A stretch of DNA of 28,110 bases, from UHGV virus genome UHGV-0095852; one strand, 5' to 3'. Under the pieces are notes generated by a model. The model was not told the DNA's origin. It saw only the letters and a list, made by a program, of their open reading frames with translations, and did no database searches. Numbering within the stretch: the stretch's first letter is position 1; every line of letters begins with the position of its first letter. Both the position numbers and the translations under genes were made by a program. This stretch comes from a virus. This document shows positions 15,305 through 21,108 of the stretch, in pieces.

Positions 15305-16987
15305 TTAATTGCTCATCACAAATTTTGCAAAGTTTATTAACTGTTCTGTCGTCCAGTTTTCCGGATCGTCACCGGACGACAACGGCGCGGATTCGTACAT
15401 ACCATGCTCGTTGTTTTGCTCTGATTCATTCGCCTTAAACTCTTTGATCATGGTGTTGAGAGTGTCATCGTCGATGTGCAACTGCTCGGTGAACAGATAA
15501 CGCATAAACGCGTCACTACCAGCCAGTTTCGGGTTGTTCTGGATCTGGTCCATAATTTGGGAGATGACAGCGACAAAGTTGGCGCGTGCATCCAGTTCCC
15601 GGTTTTCCTCTTCCTGGATAGCAGTGTTCATTGAGTTGAATTGCACGTCATAAGGACGGTTTTTTTCGGTGTAAACCTTCCCGTATTTATAAGCGAGGTG
15701 AATATCATGAAGCCGATAAATAGTTCGCTGGGCGGCCTGTCTGATCCAGTTCGCACGTAATGCGGCCTGGATAGCTGTTTGCTGCCAACCGCCTTCCCCA
15801 AGTCCACCACTCATCTGATCAGCCCAGCCAAGCATTGTTGCGTCAATGCCTAGGCTTGCAGCAAGCTGCCGGAGGTGAAACATAACGTCTTCGATACCAC
15901 TGATATCTGCGGGTATGGATTGCGTATCAATGGTGATGCCGTTCTTCCCATCGCCCATGACCGGGATCAGATGGTTAAGCACGGTCGGGATGGCGTTGGC
16001 ATTTATTGATCGCTGCGCCAGCATGTCACTGTGGCGCTTTAATGCCTGACTGACGCCTCGCGTATAGTTCGCGGCATTGACAGGATCGAGCGTATTAGTC
16101 GTCAGGGCGATAAGCCTGTCAATTTTTGCAGCGTTATTACGCGTAGATTTCAGCGCGGCAAGGGCAGCACATAGATTCAGGAATGGTTCGTAACTGTATT
16201 CCAGAAAAGACGTGCCATAGTTCTGTGTTTCAGTGAGCGGTTTGTCTTTCTGATCGCTCAACAGGGAATATCCCTTCGCCCCATAAGTCACGGGCATTAA
16301 TTTATGCTGCGGTGTCCAGTATGGGTTTTTCATCGCAACCAGGTTCCACGGTTCTGTGATCACCCGGCGCATACTTTCAGAATCCAGGATGTAATCACCC
16401 CCAAAGCCAACAAACTGGCTCCCCCGATAGAACTCCTGGATGAAGTGAGGCAATGTGTAATAACTCGACTCGATGCCCGTAATCCCTTTCCCCTGCTCGG
16501 CATAGGGACGAACATACGACACACCAAAAATAGCCATAATCATGGCCCATGACGGCAGGCCATCATTAATCATTGCCCCTAAATCGGCTGTTAACTCTTC
16601 ACACCTTTTGACGGATTCAGTATCTGCCCCGTCTTTTGGCGCAAGCATAAACGCAAGCCCCGTTTTTTTTGACGGTGCCAGAGCGTGCGCAATGTGAATA
16701 TTTAAGGCTGTGGAGATGGTTGGGCTTTTCGCCATCGTTTCCAGGATGTTGTACTTTTGCAGGCGGTCGCCGGGCAGTTCTGCCGAAATTGATACTGTAT
16801 CTGCCGCGCTTGTCATGCCATCGCTATTGCCACCCAGTATCCCCGGACGTAAAGCGGACAGACCAGAACGCGCAACGACACTATGACCGCTCGTAAAAAC
16901 GACCGGATCGGCAGGCGTGACATCGCCACTGTTGAAGGCTTTCTTCAATGCCGACAGAAAGCCTTTGTTTTTGTCTTTCGTTGCCAT
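15305..16987 (-). CDS. putative portal protein (Prt-like)
   Basis: 560-aa ORF followed by the protease-like gene; assignment by size and gene order, no motif verified. Confidence 0.5.
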   Translation of the reverse strand: MATKDKNKGFLSALKKAFNSGDVTPADPVVFTSGHSVVARSGLSALRPGILGGNSDGMTSAADTVSISAELPGDRLQKYNILETMAKSPTISTALNIHIAHALAPSKKTGLAFMLAPKDGADTESVKRCEELTADLGAMINDGLPSWAMIMAIFGVSYVRPYAEQGKGITGIESSYYTLPHFIQEFYRGSQFVGFGGDYILDSESMRRVITEPWNLVAMKNPYWTPQHKLMPVTYGAKGYSLLSDQKDKPLTETQNYGTSFLEYSYEPFLNLCAALAALKSTRNNAAKIDRLIALTTNTLDPVNAANYTRGVSQALKRHSDMLAQRSINANAIPTVLNHLIPVMGDGKNGITIDTQSIPADISGIEDVMFHLRQLAASLGIDATMLGWADQMSGGLGEGGWQQTAIQAALRANWIRQAAQRTIYRLHDIHLAYKYGKVYTEKNRPYDVQFNSMNTAIQEEENRELDARANFVAVISQIMDQIQNNPKLAGSDAFMRYLFTEQLHIDDDTLNTMIKEFKANESEQNNEHGMYESAPLSSGDDPENWTTEQLINFAKFVMSN

Positions 16988-17106
16988 GAGTCACCGCGAA
17001 ATGTTTTCAGTTTGCGGCAGCATAATCAGTATGTGATTTTTGATGATGGATCTTTTCAACTAGAAATATTGGCTGGCCCCTCTCGTAACAAAGTGAGGAA
17101 TAAAAC

Positions 17107-17135
17107 TTGAATATGCACATTGTGCGTATTAAGAT
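17107..17135 (+). promoter_or_regulatory. candidate sigma-70 promoter, -35 TTGAAT and -10 TAAGAT with 17-bp spacer
   Basis: Read directly; located about 35 bp upstream of the GGAG RBS of the 17171 gene. Confidence 0.3.
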
Positions 17136-17170
17136 TGAAAAAGTTGACCACTTTGCTGCGGAGAAATCCC

Positions 17171-17473
17171 ATGAAAAGCTCTTTAATTAATTCCAAATTA
17201 CACCAACTTGCTATCAAAAATCGAGTTCCTGCATGGTCGGTTTACATGCATATCAGCCGCGCATGTCTGAGCAATGAAAACATTTACAATCTGCAAATTC
17301 TAGGCCGGGAAGGAAGGACTTTGTTTAGCGTTGCAGAGGATTCCTATAAGGCCTGGGATATGCTGGATGACGCGTTAAGCCAATACGCGCAAACAGAAGA
17401 ATGCCAAAAAGAATGGGCCAGGTACTGTGATGAAGGGATGCCATGCTGCGGTCTGTTCGGCGCAGCTCTGTGA
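17171..17473 (+). CDS. hypothetical Cys-rich protein, about 100 aa
   Basis: ATG at 17171 with GGAG 8 nt upstream (the ORF track start at 17120 is a TTG without RBS); seven Cys, four of them in the last 25 residues. Confidence 0.5.
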   Translation: MKSSLINSKLHQLAIKNRVPAWSVYMHISRACLSNENIYNLQILGREGRTLFSVAEDSYKAWDMLDDALSQYAQTEECQKEWARYCDEGMPCCGLFGAAL

Positions 17474-17485
17474 ATCGATTCAACG

Positions 17486-17749
17486 ATGATATACTTCGTT
17501 GCGAATCACAGCATTGGCAAAGGGCATAATGTGAAACAACTCCCACCAAACACCCCGGAAACTATAATTGAAATCCGCCAGCGAATGGGGCTAACGCAAA
17601 CGGAGTTGGCCCACAAAATGGGGTATCAACTCCGGGCTTGGCAATTCAAAGAAGATAGAAATAAACCGAGACGCCTTATGGCTGGTGAATTTGAGTACCT
17701 GTTATTGCTTGCTGGAGAGCATCCTGAATTTATTCTTACACCACGCTAA
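17486..17749 (+). CDS. XRE-family helix-turn-helix DNA-binding protein; likely start at GTG 17531
   Basis: HTH signature IRQRMGLTQTELAHKMGY; AAGGG RBS 6 nt before the GTG at 17531. Confidence 0.6.
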   Translation: MIYFVANHSIGKGHNVKQLPPNTPETIIEIRQRMGLTQTELAHKMGYQLRAWQFKEDRNKPRRLMAGEFEYLLLLAGEHPEFILTPR

Positions 17750-17771
17750 AAAAACCCGCCTGACGGCGGGA
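17749..17771 (-). terminator. rho-independent terminator of the darA-type operon (stem CCCGCC/GGCGGG, then T7)
   Basis: Hairpin 17756-17771 with seven T on the minus-strand reading. Confidence 0.65.
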
Positions 17772-17783
17772 TTATCAATCATA

Positions 17784-18077
17784 TCAATTCACATCAATGT
17801 CTTGATATGATTCGCCAGTATCGTCTTCGTCGTCAGGATCTCCTTCCACCTCTGGCCACTCAACCTCCCAGCCAACAGTTTCCAGGCTCCGCAGAACAAA
17901 CACCCCATCGGCATGAATGGTATTCACGATCCCCATTGCGGAATTTGTGTTGATAAAGCGTATATCTTGCGCAATATTTTCTTCCGAAATATCGCCTTCA
18001 AATATACGCAATGTGCCGTCATCAGAGCATTCAACAATCCCTCTAATCCCAGCGGGACTCACAATGCTATACTTCAT
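17784..18077 (-). CDS. hypothetical acidic protein, 97 aa, last gene of the operon
   Basis: ATG with AAGGAG RBS at 7 nt; highly acidic C-terminus. Confidence 0.55.
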   Translation of the reverse strand: MKYSIVSPAGIRGIVECSDDGTLRIFEGDISEENIAQDIRFINTNSAMGIVNTIHADGVFVLRSLETVGWEVEWPEVEGDPDDEDDTGESYQDIDVN

Positions 18078-21000
18078 TTTGCAACTCCTTCATACATCCC
18101 AAGAAAAATTCCAGCACGCCGTCATTGTTTAATACAGAGTTAGTCGCCTGCTCCGGATCGGCATACATCTGCAAGGCCATAGAAAAAATCTCAGTCGCCC
18201 TGCAATTGCTTAATGCAGGTGGCTTTGATATAAATCTGCCGCTGACAGAACTTACCGTATTTTCCATATAAATTTTAGACATATATCCATGACTTAGGTC
18301 GGTTCGCACCAAATACTCAGCACTGCCACGGCTACCAATATTATGATAAGAAACTTTACCGTTAGTTTTTGATTTAATGAAGGCTTTGGCCCTCTCCAAT
18401 AGATGGGGATTTGAATGTTCTATATGGTGACCTATTTCATGCCATAATACACGCTCGTGATCACTATTAGCATCAATTGTTATATTCCCATTTCGACTTG
18501 CAAAAGCACGAACATTGTTCTCGTGGTTAATATTTTTTAATGTAGATAAAGTCCCTCCTGAAATAATATAGGCTTTTTCAATCGTCTCGCGAATACTGTA
18601 TGCTTTACGGGAGAAAGTTTCATTATCGTGACCACTTAACTGCTCTGCTTCATCAGAAATAGCAATCCCACGACTCCATTCCTTAGACTGGTCATGTGAC
18701 ACATTTGACGATTCAAGAATCATGTCAAATGCGGCTCTGACTTTTTTATGTACTACATTTTCAAGCGCATTAGGATAGGCTTTTTGTCCACGTGTTAATG
18801 AAGCTATTTCATATAGTTCTGCTTGCAAGTCTTCCGGTATGTCCAGATTAAAAACAAGCATTTTTTTCAGATCATATCCAATCCCATGATCATTCTGGTG
18901 CAAAACCTCAGCAAGGTAGTCAGTGAGTTTTTCCTTATTTGACCTAACGTTATTGATTTGTTCTATAGTAAAGTCAACACGCTCCTTGATTCCGTAATAT
19001 GAGGAATGCTCTGCTAATTCCACTATCTCCTTAAGCCTGACAAGTGTCTCAATATACGCATCAGCGATCTCCTCTGCCGTTAGTTCAGAGCTAACTCCGA
19101 CACTGGCTGTTATTTTCCTACCAGCCGCCATAATATCGTCGATATTATGCAAGCTCTTTTTGAATAACTTCAAAGTATTTTGGATTATGCGCACCATCTC
19201 TTCTGCGCTTCCAGCTTTATTCATTTCCTTTCTAAATCTTAAAGCTGTTTTCTCTGCAATAGACGCTGGAGATTTTAAATAGTTACCTAACCAAACAAGA
19301 CAACCATTGCGCAATTCATCAATGCTAAAGTCATCAGGAATATGTTTTGCTGCATTATGTAAAACACGTATAAATTGTTCAGCGGGCACGCCTTCTTCTG
19401 ATATGTTGCAAAACGTTTCAATATCACAATCAATATTTCTTTCATCTGCGAGCGAAGGAGCTTCATCTCCTTTTTCAATCGCGTCACGCAGTGCGTTAGC
19501 ATAAAAATTGCTGCGTTGATAAGACAATAACATCGTTGTTAACACAGCGTCGCTGTATCCATAACGTTTAGCCCACTCCTTAATCTCATTAACGGTGACA
19601 TTGCGAATATAAAAACCAAGTTCCAAAAATACATTGCGCTTTATTTTTTTTGCGGACTCCTTAATTTTTTCTGACACCTTCACGATTCGGATCAAGTCCT
19701 CCACGCTGGTCGCATCAGCAATTAGCTTTGAAATGTATGGTTCGACATCTCCTGAAACCGATTCAAACATGGCGAAATTAAGCCCTTTACCTTCGCCATA
19801 CTCAGCCTCAATTTCATCAGAAACGGCAGATAAAATGCTACGCAGATCGACATCTCCGCCGCCGAACATATCGCCTAACGCTTGTTGCTGGTGAATAAGT
19901 TCATCGTTAATTTTTTGCGCCAGTTTCTTGAAAGCTGCCCCCATTCGCTTAGCGCTTCGGTTGTTGGCAACAATAAACAGAGCAAGCGCTTCTGCTTCCG
20001 GAGTGCTATCTCCAAACAATCCACGCTGTGCGATCACCTCTTCTACTGCCTGACCGTTATCTTTTGCTTCACGAACAAGGTTAATTGCTTCCTGTAGCGC
20101 GGCAATAGCCTGTTTATCCAGACTATTCAATTGCTCTATACCGTCTACCAGTCCGGTTACCGTGTCATGGTGAACATCACCTGAAAGCGACTGCATTTGC
20201 GCAAAATCGCTGGCTGCCGTATTTAATGCGGTAAGGATGTTACGCATTTCCGGATCTGGCTCTTCCGCCACCAGCCGAACAAGCCTTTCATCCTTGTACG
20301 CTTTGGCAAAAATTGCATTCTGGATGCGGTCGATAAGTTGTTTCGTTGGACGCCCATCGGCAGTAAGCAAACCTGCCGTCGCCGTATCACCTATTTCGCG
20401 CAAAAACGCACGAATAAACGCATCATTGGACCGCGCCAGTAGATTTCCATCATCTGAAGGATTAAATAGCGCCATGACGCTCTCAGTGAGAAATTGCGCA
20501 TCCGCATACGCTTTTTCACTTGCAGCCATCTCTTGCAGATCGCTGATGTTTGAATCGCGGGCAAATTGTGCGCGGTCTACATCTGTGAGTCTTTCTCGCA
20601 CCAGTACGGGCATAGACATTTGTGAAATGTCGTCAGGATTCAGACCAAACTCTTTTGCATGATCGATCAGGTACTGGCGATATTCATCCGCCTGCCCTTG
20701 CTCATAGGCACGCCAGATACCCATGCTCCTTCCGTTGCCGGATTCAACAACGTTGTCCGGACCAACTATCGGCGCTCCGTGGCTGCTCATGCCGGAATCC
20801 GTTAATTGTGCCGGGCGTAAATTGGAGGCAATACGGTTAACCTGGAGTTTGCTGGATAGCCGTGTACGGTCACGTGGCTGGAGTTCTTCCGGGAAGGCCG
20901 GATTAATCGTACCGTCAAGGTTGTTCGAAATGATCAGACTGCTGGCATCAACGACCTTAAAAGCCGTCTTTACCTCTGCCCCTTTACTGGTGACTACGTA

Positions 21001-21108
21001 ACTACTGCGCCCCTGGCGTGTTTCTCGCCTCTCTAATGAAGAAACCAGCTCAATAACACTGTTAATGTCTGCTGCTTCGGATAGCGCGGAAGTAACTGAC
21101 TTGTTCAA
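18067..21108 (-). CDS. DdrB-like large internal head protein (by synteny) with a C-terminal HExxH motif
   Basis: 1013-aa ORF, TTG start with AAGGGGAG RBS; HEIGH encoded at 18427-18441. Confidence 0.75.
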   Translation of the reverse strand: MNKSVTSALSEAADINSVIELVSSLERRETRQGRSSYVVTSKGAEVKTAFKVVDASSLIISNNLDGTINPAFPEELQPRDRTRLSSKLQVNRIASNLRPAQLTDSGMSSHGAPIVGPDNVVESGNGRSMGIWRAYEQGQADEYRQYLIDHAKEFGLNPDDISQMSMPVLVRERLTDVDRAQFARDSNISDLQEMAASEKAYADAQFLTESVMALFNPSDDGNLLARSNDAFIRAFLREIGDTATAGLLTADGRPTKQLIDRIQNAIFAKAYKDERLVRLVAEEPDPEMRNILTALNTAASDFAQMQSLSGDVHHDTVTGLVDGIEQLNSLDKQAIAALQEAINLVREAKDNGQAVEEVIAQRGLFGDSTPEAEALALFIVANNRSAKRMGAAFKKLAQKINDELIHQQQALGDMFGGGDVDLRSILSAVSDEIEAEYGEGKGLNFAMFESVSGDVEPYISKLIADATSVEDLIRIVKVSEKIKESAKKIKRNVFLELGFYIRNVTVNEIKEWAKRYGYSDAVLTTMLLSYQRSNFYANALRDAIEKGDEAPSLADERNIDCDIETFCNISEEGVPAEQFIRVLHNAAKHIPDDFSIDELRNGCLVWLGNYLKSPASIAEKTALRFRKEMNKAGSAEEMVRIIQNTLKLFKKSLHNIDDIMAAGRKITASVGVSSELTAEEIADAYIETLVRLKEIVELAEHSSYYGIKERVDFTIEQINNVRSNKEKLTDYLAEVLHQNDHGIGYDLKKMLVFNLDIPEDLQAELYEIASLTRGQKAYPNALENVVHKKVRAAFDMILESSNVSHDQSKEWSRGIAISDEAEQLSGHDNETFSRKAYSIRETIEKAYIISGGTLSTLKNINHENNVRAFASRNGNITIDANSDHERVLWHEIGHHIEHSNPHLLERAKAFIKSKTNGKVSYHNIGSRGSAEYLVRTDLSHGYMSKIYMENTVSSVSGRFISKPPALSNCRATEIFSMALQMYADPEQATNSVLNNDGVLEFFLGCMKELQNEV

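Follow-up and report, generated by a model that had tools for sequence, protein, structure and literature searches.

A candidate repressor-gated cargo cassette

We analysed a 28,110-nt stretch of the virus genome UHGV-0095852 (hereafter the window), in which positions 17107-17770 of the plus strand hold a two-gene cassette: gene 1, encoding a 100-aa protein of a very rare family, followed by gene 2, encoding a small helix-turn-helix (HTH) protein of the XRE type. Our preferred reading, to which we give a probability of about one half, is that this is a repressor-gated accessory ('moron'-type) cargo cassette, laid out like the anti-CRISPR (acr) and anti-CRISPR-associated (aca) operons and standing beside the 'defence against restriction' (dar) operon of a phage P1-like element. 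As we picture it, the gene 2 product would be a small dimeric repressor that binds a 15-bp palindrome in the spacer of the cassette promoter (P1 in Table 1, not to be confused with phage P1), turning off transcription of gene 1, and would also be expressed from an internal extended -10 promoter (P2). Since gene 2 would thus have its own promoter, we propose that an established lysogen contains the repressor at all times; and since it would not yet have accumulated in a naive cell, the cargo would be made there mainly as a burst on entry. Such a burst-then-shutoff logic would be that of acr-aca operons, of restriction-modification (R-M) controller proteins and of plasmid leading-region genes. 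Gene 1 would be the payload, a small soluble alpha/beta protein working together with, or in the same pathway as, proteins of the YkfF/YpjJ/YeeT type (DUF905), and its conserved, flexible C-terminal tail would probably serve to bind another protein. From its context, its most likely role is in establishment or anti-defence.

A preliminary description of this DNA had proposed a promoter, two genes and a terminal hairpin here, and all of these are present at the positions it gave. Both genes are real coding genes under purifying selection, as judged from the ratio of non-synonymous to synonymous substitutions (dN/dS) against a related locus, L004 (comparison loci are denoted by L and a number): the ratio is 0.195 for gene 1, whose homolog there is 75% identical, and 0.07 for gene 2. 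Gene 1 is the fastest evolving relative to its neighbours (0.03-0.11), yet it is under selection.

The HTH gene is constant and its cargo varies

The RefSeq (PGAP) call for gene 2 is a 54-aa product (ATG 17585-17749, WP_164843726.1) that occurs in 356 assembly blocks, and at all 10 of the places that we inspected this exact product belongs to a gene 1-HTH pair in a D6-like context. More distant homologs of gene 2 (68-78% identity) lie on P1-like elements; there they invariably converge on the hxr/ddrB end of the dar operon, and their upstream cargo differs. Gene 1 is followed directly by the HTH gene in the window, in L004 and in L025, where the gene 1 homolog is 43% identical. In L015-17 a DUF905 gene, whose product matches YkfF at 1e-18, stands between a gene 1 homolog (41% identical) and the HTH gene; in L033-35 that middle place is taken by a gene-1-like domain fused to DUF905; in L021-23 DUF905 precedes the HTH gene and gene 1 is missing; and in Klebsiella plasmids the part upstream of the HTH gene has been removed by an insertion sequence. 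Gene 1 homologs are also found with no such HTH gene nearby (L003, L026/27, L036-38), the settings being a 291-kb Citrobacter plasmid, an unassigned contig where the gene lies behind a 185-aa open reading frame (ORF), and an integrase-bearing integrative element. Since the cargo varies, the HTH gene stays and gene 1 also occurs free of it, the HTH gene is the constant part, and gene 1 and DUF905 are cargo that can be exchanged, combined or fused. A small HTH gene downstream of variable small cargo on a mobile element, a feature of acr-aca operons, is found across P1-like elements.

The fusion protein (L033:4302-4787, 161 aa, also in L034 and L035) is encoded with a separate gene 1 homolog on one side and the HTH gene on the other. 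Its residues 4-85 align with the gene 1 family (hhalign probability 96%, E 1.5e-9; BLASTP 5e-6) and its residues 97-160 are DUF905 (Pfam E 6e-22), and we read it as a Rosetta-stone link of the orphan gene 1 family with DUF905 (YkfF/YpjJ/YeeT). DUF905 may thus take the cassette position of gene 1, stand adjacent to it, or be fused to a gene-1-like domain. The two differ in that gene 1 has no profile similarity to DUF905 and carries two extra C-terminal helices as well as the conserved tail. That gene 1 might itself be a divergent DUF905 (PF06006) was rejected at the sequence level (hhalign probability 1.6%, no Pfam DUF905 match).

Gene 1 is a member of an extremely small family

Gene 1, which is preceded by a ribosome-binding site (GGAG, 17160-17163), matched nothing in Pfam, PHROGs, NCBIfam or PADLOC, nor did a tblastn search of 50,697 phage records return any homolog. 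A word-indexed search of 5.8 billion proteins gave three clusters of homologs, an exhaustive HMMER pass over 1.84 billion representatives only about seven small ones (94-102 aa), and tblastn added one member on a Citrobacter plasmid. Across the family a VPAW motif is conserved, as is a disordered C-terminal tail of the form P-x-x-G-x-x-G-x-x-L. The preliminary description was right that the protein has about 100 residues and no recognizable family; its 'Cys-rich' label fits the five cysteines of this protein but is no family trait, only Cys78 being mostly conserved while C32, C86, C92 and C93 vary. It was also right that gene 1 does not resemble RelE, Doc or MqsR, as we found no match to any toxin family or toxin fold, including the RelE/MqsR-like ribonuclease fold. 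The idea that the tail is a sliding-clamp-binding motif was dropped, the 185-aa upstream neighbour in L026 having no clamp support from Pfam or the PDB.

Gene 2 resembles small XRE-type repressors

The longest ORF for gene 2 runs from ATG 17486 to 17749 (87 aa), and the protein had been described as an HTH protein of 72-87 aa, which is borne out. Within that range the start is most probably GTG 17531 (72 aa). This codon is preferred because homologs from other lineages open with M-x-x-LPPNTPE at the same column; AAGGG lies six bases before it, and the 45 nt upstream of it show two non-synonymous and no synonymous changes relative to L004. The 54-aa RefSeq start is probably mis-called, because it loses the conserved LPPNTPETIxxIR segment and helix 1 of the modelled HTH.

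An AlphaFold2 (AF2) model of gene 2 (mean predicted local distance difference test score, pLDDT, 87) has four helices, at residues 9-19, 23-30, 34-41 and 53-60. Searched against the PDB with Foldseek, it matched Aca10 first (template modelling (TM) scores 0.68/0.83, 33% identity, E 0.026), followed by HipB, Aca1, C.Esp1396I (TM about 0.6) and the Stl repressor; the top matches are all XRE-type HTH proteins, with probabilities of 0.98-1.0. In profile comparisons with the PDB, the gene 2 family matches the MqsA HTH domain best (2e-5), with Aca3 (3.5e-5), Aca10 (4e-4), a 434-Cro-like design and HipB also found, and gene 2 matches PHROG 7950 'transcriptional repressor' at 4e-6. Every Pfam model stays below threshold for the protein of the window: HTH_3 matches at E 0.004, under the Pfam cutoff, and the MqsA model PF15731 at E 0.027 (15 bits versus a cutoff of 30), over positions 70-126 of 131, its DNA-binding half. 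More distant members of the family pass the Pfam thresholds for MqsA_antitoxin and Xre-like-HTH (antitoxin), and there are weak PADLOC matches to HTH proteins, such as capH at E 0.035. By modelled fold and sequence together, gene 2 belongs to the XRE/Cro-C1 superfamily of HTH regulators; its nearest solved relatives are small autorepressors, and as modelled it consists of nothing but an HTH domain of the MqsA-C/Aca/Cro kind. Membership of the family in AcrIE10 was rejected, as AcrIE10 is a ribbon-helix-helix (RHH) fusion protein (PMC13530269).

Promoters, operator and hairpins

Despite a sub-threshold score, promoter P1 is credible because it is conserved in diverged relatives. Equivalent promoters, with a TTG -35 and a -10 of the TAnnnT type, occupy the same place in L004 (TTGAAT-17-TATGAT), L015 (TTGCAT-17-CATTAT), L021 (TTGCCA-18-TATAGT), L025 (TTGCCA-16-TATTAT) and L033 (TTGCCA-17-ATTATT). 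The candidate operator O1 (ATGCACATTGTGCGT) is found a single time in the window, and a search of the full 93.1-kb plasmid that tolerated three mismatches also gave just one copy; this single copy led us to reject the palindrome as the site of a global regulator. It recurs at the equivalent position in L004 and in L015-17, where the flanks are otherwise unalignable. L017 has two copies, the second 32 bp upstream; in L021 the operator is present at 14 of 15 positions and in inverted orientation; and in L033 a variant core, CACA-A-TGT, lies inside a 19-bp palindrome. Its independence of orientation, its position in the spacer and its uniqueness are as would be expected for the operator of a local dimeric repressor.

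Gene 2 probably has an internal extended -10 promoter of its own (P2, TGATATACT). In five loci (the window, L004, L015, L021 and L025) the pattern TGnTAnnnT precedes the PPNTPE codons by 56-59 nt, in surroundings that are otherwise unalignable. In several relatives the extended -10 is followed by a GC hairpin and a T-run (L015:3954-3985, TGATACACT; L025:4314-4345, TGATAAACT; L033:4783-4815, TGCTAAGAT; a weaker one in L021). A transcript from the cargo promoter of these relatives would terminate at this hairpin, between the cargo and the HTH gene. One starting about 7 nt past the extended -10, on the other hand, would likely begin within the terminator stem and so escape termination.

The hairpin at the end of the cassette had been described as a terminator shared with the operon on the other strand. 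This holds for the minus-strand operon, on whose strand alone seven T residues follow the stem; the plus strand continues with AUUAUCAAU, and for the cassette the hairpin is therefore at best a weak terminator. No Rfam RNA family was found within 16900-17900.

Weighing the explanations

Much of the case for our preferred reading is the likeness to acr-aca operons. Shared features are the variable small cargo upstream and the conserved small HTH gene downstream, an inverted repeat inside the promoter (here the candidate operator), a place on a phage or plasmid beside other anti-defence genes (here the dar operon), and Aca10 as the top Foldseek match, with Aca3 and Aca10 among the best profile matches. 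They differ in that gene 2 is no more similar to Aca proteins than to MqsA or 434 Cro, in that gene 2 has an apparent promoter of its own and its relatives a terminator between cargo and HTH gene, and in that acr cargo inhibits CRISPR-Cas, whereas gene 1 has no similarity to any described protein. Aca proteins have been reported to control anti-defence cargo beyond acr genes (PMC13551039). The controller (C) proteins of R-M systems, such as C.Esp1396I, resemble the proposed repressor: they are small XRE HTH dimers that bind a palindromic box at a promoter and so time the expression of neighbouring genes on entry into a new cell. Their genes, however, precede the gene that they control, they both activate and repress, and the cassette contains no R-M genes.

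Several observations weigh against this reading. Gene 1 showed no link to any defence system in PADLOC or PHROGs, and its proposed anti-defence role is drawn from context. The P1 hexamers are weak, matching the consensus at 8 of 12 positions, and the promoter scan did not list P1 because its threshold was 9 of 12. In L025 the GCACA-N-TGTGC operator is replaced by a perfect palindrome over the cassette -10 (L025:3924-3965, ATTACGTCATAATGTCGTA-TTAT-TACGACATTATGACGTAAT, arms of 19 nt and a 4-nt spacer); the recognition helix of the L025 HTH protein differs too (YPLRSWQRKE versus YQLRAWQFKE). That gene 2 is what binds the palindrome is something we infer. Finally, the terminator that relatives have between cargo and HTH gene is absent from the lineage of the window, where it is replaced by an inverted repeat without a U-run (CTGTGAATCG / CGAATCACAG), so that read-through into gene 2 is likely too; it is possible that the two genes are co-transcribed, as in a classical operon or a toxin-antitoxin pair.

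A HigBA- or MqsRA-like toxin-antitoxin module was the interpretation put forward in the preliminary description, and the comparative data do not support it, since the partners occur apart in both directions. Under this explanation gene 1 would be a new toxin of a type II system (addiction or abortive infection) and gene 2 an HTH antitoxin that neutralizes it and autorepresses through the palindrome. The toxin-first order, the XRE-type second gene and a palindromic operator within the promoter are shared with MqsR/MqsA and HigB/HigA, and the small sizes and the plasmid location would fit, as would the fact that the closest match to this HTH family in sequence is the HTH domain of MqsA, the passing of antitoxin Pfam thresholds by its distant members, the presence of HipB among the top structural neighbours and the 4-14 nt overlap of HTH gene and preceding small ORF on conjugative plasmids (see below). 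Against these stand the gene 1 homologs in three unrelated elements without this HTH gene or any adjacent small partner, the retention of the HTH gene where DUF905 replaces gene 1, and the HTH homologs on thousands of conjugative plasmids with unrelated partners of 83-93 aa; unlike type II partners, those of the cassette are not co-inherited, each being found without the other. In relatives, moreover, a terminator and a separate promoter lie between 'toxin' and 'antitoxin', and in the window the two genes are 57 nt apart. No RelE/MqsR-like or other toxin-like fold or family is matched by gene 1, gene 2 consists of its 72-aa HTH domain without a neutralizing domain or the N-terminal zinc-ribbon by which MqsA binds its toxin, and the plasmid already carries a canonical HigB/HigA pair. 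We therefore disfavour a toxin-antitoxin pair and regard it as unlikely. The alternative that the preliminary description had itself offered, some other small and possibly novel regulatory module, is supported by an XRE-type HTH protein, a conserved operator-bearing promoter and a cargo without a described family.

Another explanation is that the cassette serves prophage defence or exclusion, with the HTH-controlled gene 1 shielding the lysogen from other phages or plasmids. Accessory genes of temperate phages often encode defence, and the slot that the cassette occupies is a variable one, its D6 counterpart orf24 weakly matching DUF4145 and HEPN-like domains; the sigma-70-type promoter outside the late operons and the weak PADLOC HTH matches of gene 2 (such as capH) point the same way. 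Gene 1, however, has no PADLOC match, a repressor that silences the cargo in an established lysogen suits constitutive defence poorly, and both DUF905 and the HTH family are typically met with in the leading regions of plasmids, near ardA, ssb and psiB (PMC12826799); we consider a defence cassette quite unlikely. It is very unlikely, in our view, that gene 2 regulates the life cycle of the phage-plasmid (the dar operon or the lysis-lysogeny decision) with gene 1 as an unrelated passenger. The constant convergence of the HTH gene with the hxr/ddrB end in P1-like elements would agree with this, and transcription of the gene could cause interference where the dar operon ends; but the only operator copy on the plasmid is at the cassette's own promoter, D6 and P1 lack gene 2, its homologs are widespread on conjugative plasmids that are not phages, and this phage type can do without the module, which only six of 5426 complete E. 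coli genomes carry. Within the repressor-gated cargo reading, the more specific proposal that gene 1 founds an undescribed anti-defence or establishment family that works with DUF905 under an Aca-like repressor is tentative.

A variable slot beside the dar operon

The element from which the window derives is a non-conjugative E. coli plasmid of roughly 90 kb, a phage of the D6/P1 type. Over a 1-kb stretch around the cassette, identity is 100% with plasmid NZ_CP135715.1 and 99% with three more; a further 117 plasmids and phage D6 match only the first 140 bases of this stretch, which belong to the portal gene. Among 5426 complete E. coli genomes the cassette was found in six, each time on a plasmid, and gene 2 is absent from phages D6 and P1.

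The cassette is the sole plus-strand unit from about 11.8 to 25.3 kb, in agreement with the preliminary description, which was mistaken in placing it between convergent late operons: the prt/pro flank shares the minus strand with the hxr-like and ddrB-like genes (17784-21108), so the two operons do not converge. The cassette itself points away from the portal gene prt and towards the end of the dar operon, with which it is convergent (Table 1). To its left, annotation of the identical plasmid, D6 and P1 identifies genes for RepL, a head-processing protein and the portal protein on the minus strand; to its right, also on the minus strand, are the 97-aa ORF, the 1013-aa DdrB-like ORF, ddrA, darA and hdf, which form the end of the P1-type dar operon (in P1, hdf-darA-ddrA-ddrB-hxr).

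Table 1. Features of the cassette and its flanks, in window coordinates.
Feature	Position	Strand	Basis or remark
Portal protein (prt) flank	15305-16987	-	annotation of identical plasmid and phage D6; divergent from cassette
Promoter P1: TTGAAT (17107-17112), 17-nt spacer, TAAGAT (17130-17135)	17107-17135	+	candidate; position conserved in relatives
Candidate operator O1, 15-bp near-palindrome	17113-17127		core GCACA-T-TGTGC; fills the P1 spacer
Gene 1, 100 aa	17171-17473	+	undescribed, very rare family; cytoplasmic
Intergenic inverted repeat	17468-17511	+	RNA hairpin, no U-run, -18.3 kcal/mol, z -2.7; encloses P2 element
Candidate internal promoter P2 for gene 2, extended -10	17487-17495	+	conserved TGnTAnnnT; inferred
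Gene 2, 72-aa XRE-type HTH protein, candidate repressor of P1	17531-17749	+	homolog alignment, substitution pattern, AF2 model
GC hairpin CCCGCC-TGAC-GGCGGG	17755-17770		intrinsic terminator of minus-strand dar operon (T7 run)
Homolog of phage P1 Hxr, 97 aa, last dar operon gene	17784-18077	-	43% identity, E 1e-16; PHROG 2292
DdrB-like protein, 1013 aa, ParB-like N-terminal domain	18067-21108	-	Pfam PF18763 1e-41; PHROG 2299

The slot between the portal side and hxr holds orf23/orf24 on the minus strand in D6, isaA-IS1-isaB in P1 and ompD in a P7-like mcr-1 plasmid (PMC5786510). Given this variation among relatives, the cassette occupies a known variable accessory slot. The weak matches of D6 orf24 (L002:6550-7107) to DUF4145 (7.6e-4) and HEPN_RiboL-PSP (0.011) hint that the slot can carry defence-type genes.

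In every P1-like locus with the HTH gene, an Hxr homolog is its convergent neighbour. P1 Hxr is annotated as 'homolog of Xre, possible repressor', and its name implies an XRE regulator in the same neighbourhood; its counterpart here, however, is the minus-strand 97-aa ORF and not gene 2. Neither P1 Hxr nor the 97-aa ORF contains an HTH in Pfam at E<=0.1, and the real XRE-type gene at this place is therefore gene 2, on the other strand. The neighbouring DdrB-like ORF is intact, with TTG as its first possible start and a metallopeptidase-like HEIGHH motif near its C-terminus; the PLSDB gene table for the identical plasmid lacks it, and several NCBI assemblies (L005, L006, L009-L014) leave it uncalled, though it is called in L007 and L008. 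Outside the window, NZ_CP135715.1 carries an annotated HigB-family toxin with an HTH partner (54856-55521; L040:4957-5622) and ParM-type partition genes, so that conventional stability functions are already present on this phage-plasmid.

Two sequence elements lie between the portal gene and the cassette. The first, TAATCAGTATGTGATTT (17023-17039; TA...A.T.TGTG.TTT), is invariant in five diverged P1-like loci, upstream of a leftward gene that is either the portal gene or a CHAP peptidoglycan hydrolase gene; its role may be that of a late promoter or regulatory site for the leftward operon, and it shows no simple fit to the P1 late-promoter box (AAGTGAnTn, 4 nt, -10). The second, AAGTGAGGA (17091-17099), just upstream of the cassette -35, is like the -22 box of the P1 late promoters (AAGTGACTA, AAGTGATTT, AAGTTACTT). 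A P1-type late promoter before gene 1, based on this AAGTGA box, was rejected, as its spacing and -10 are unlike those of LPpro, LPlyz and LPdar and there is no well-spaced TAnnnT.

Relatives of gene 2 and DUF905 on conjugative plasmids

Beyond P1-like elements, tblastn placed gene 2 homologs with 41-54% identity on 4208 plasmids, of which 3821 are conjugative (IncX3/X4, IncK, IncL and others). On these they lie a few kilobases from relaxase genes amid typical leading-region genes. In IncK, IncX4 and IncX3 plasmids (L029:2738-3207, L030:1561-2026 and L032:2215-2728, respectively) the HTH gene overlaps a preceding ORF of 83-93 aa by 4-14 nt, and in IncL (L031:3234-3713) the HTH forms the C-terminal portion of a protein of 159 aa. 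The 83-93 aa ORF (for example MRKNKG..TY.LE...) represents yet another unknown family, unrelated to gene 1; upstream of it are a 180-aa unknown ORF and a DnaJ-domain gene, near the relaxase genes.

DUF905 has a similar setting. In the leading region of an F-type plasmid it lies between ssb and psiB, adjoining ardA, and it has been reported as linked to psiB/psiA (PMC12826799). An apparent gene-1-like extension of the plasmid DUF905 proteins near ssb turned out to be a tblastn artefact, an alternate frame of ssb. Given the leading-region settings of both DUF905 and the HTH family, the partners of gene 1 belong to a gene pool that is expressed on entering a new cell.

Implications for plasmid and phage-plasmid biology

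Small accessory cassettes of mobile elements that are autoregulated by an HTH protein are a known kind of system. What is new here, as leads, is an undescribed and extremely rare cargo family, its link to DUF905, and a plasmid-wide HTH family with variable upstream genes. The cassette ties an orphan family to DUF905, an uncharacterized domain found in cryptic prophages of E. coli K-12 and beside ssb, psiB and ardA on conjugative plasmids, and it draws attention to a small HTH family that stands, on more than 4000 plasmids, always behind variable small genes. If gene 2 is an Aca-like repressor, it could help to uncover further genes for anti-defence or establishment on plasmids and phage-plasmids of clinical importance. 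Were gene 1 to prove an anti-defence or establishment protein that works with DUF905 under such a repressor, the HTH family of gene 2 could be a guilt-by-association marker for further cargo on Enterobacterales plasmids, and the same reasoning would provide the first function for DUF905, a domain widespread in the cryptic prophages of E. coli and in the leading regions of thousands of conjugative plasmids.

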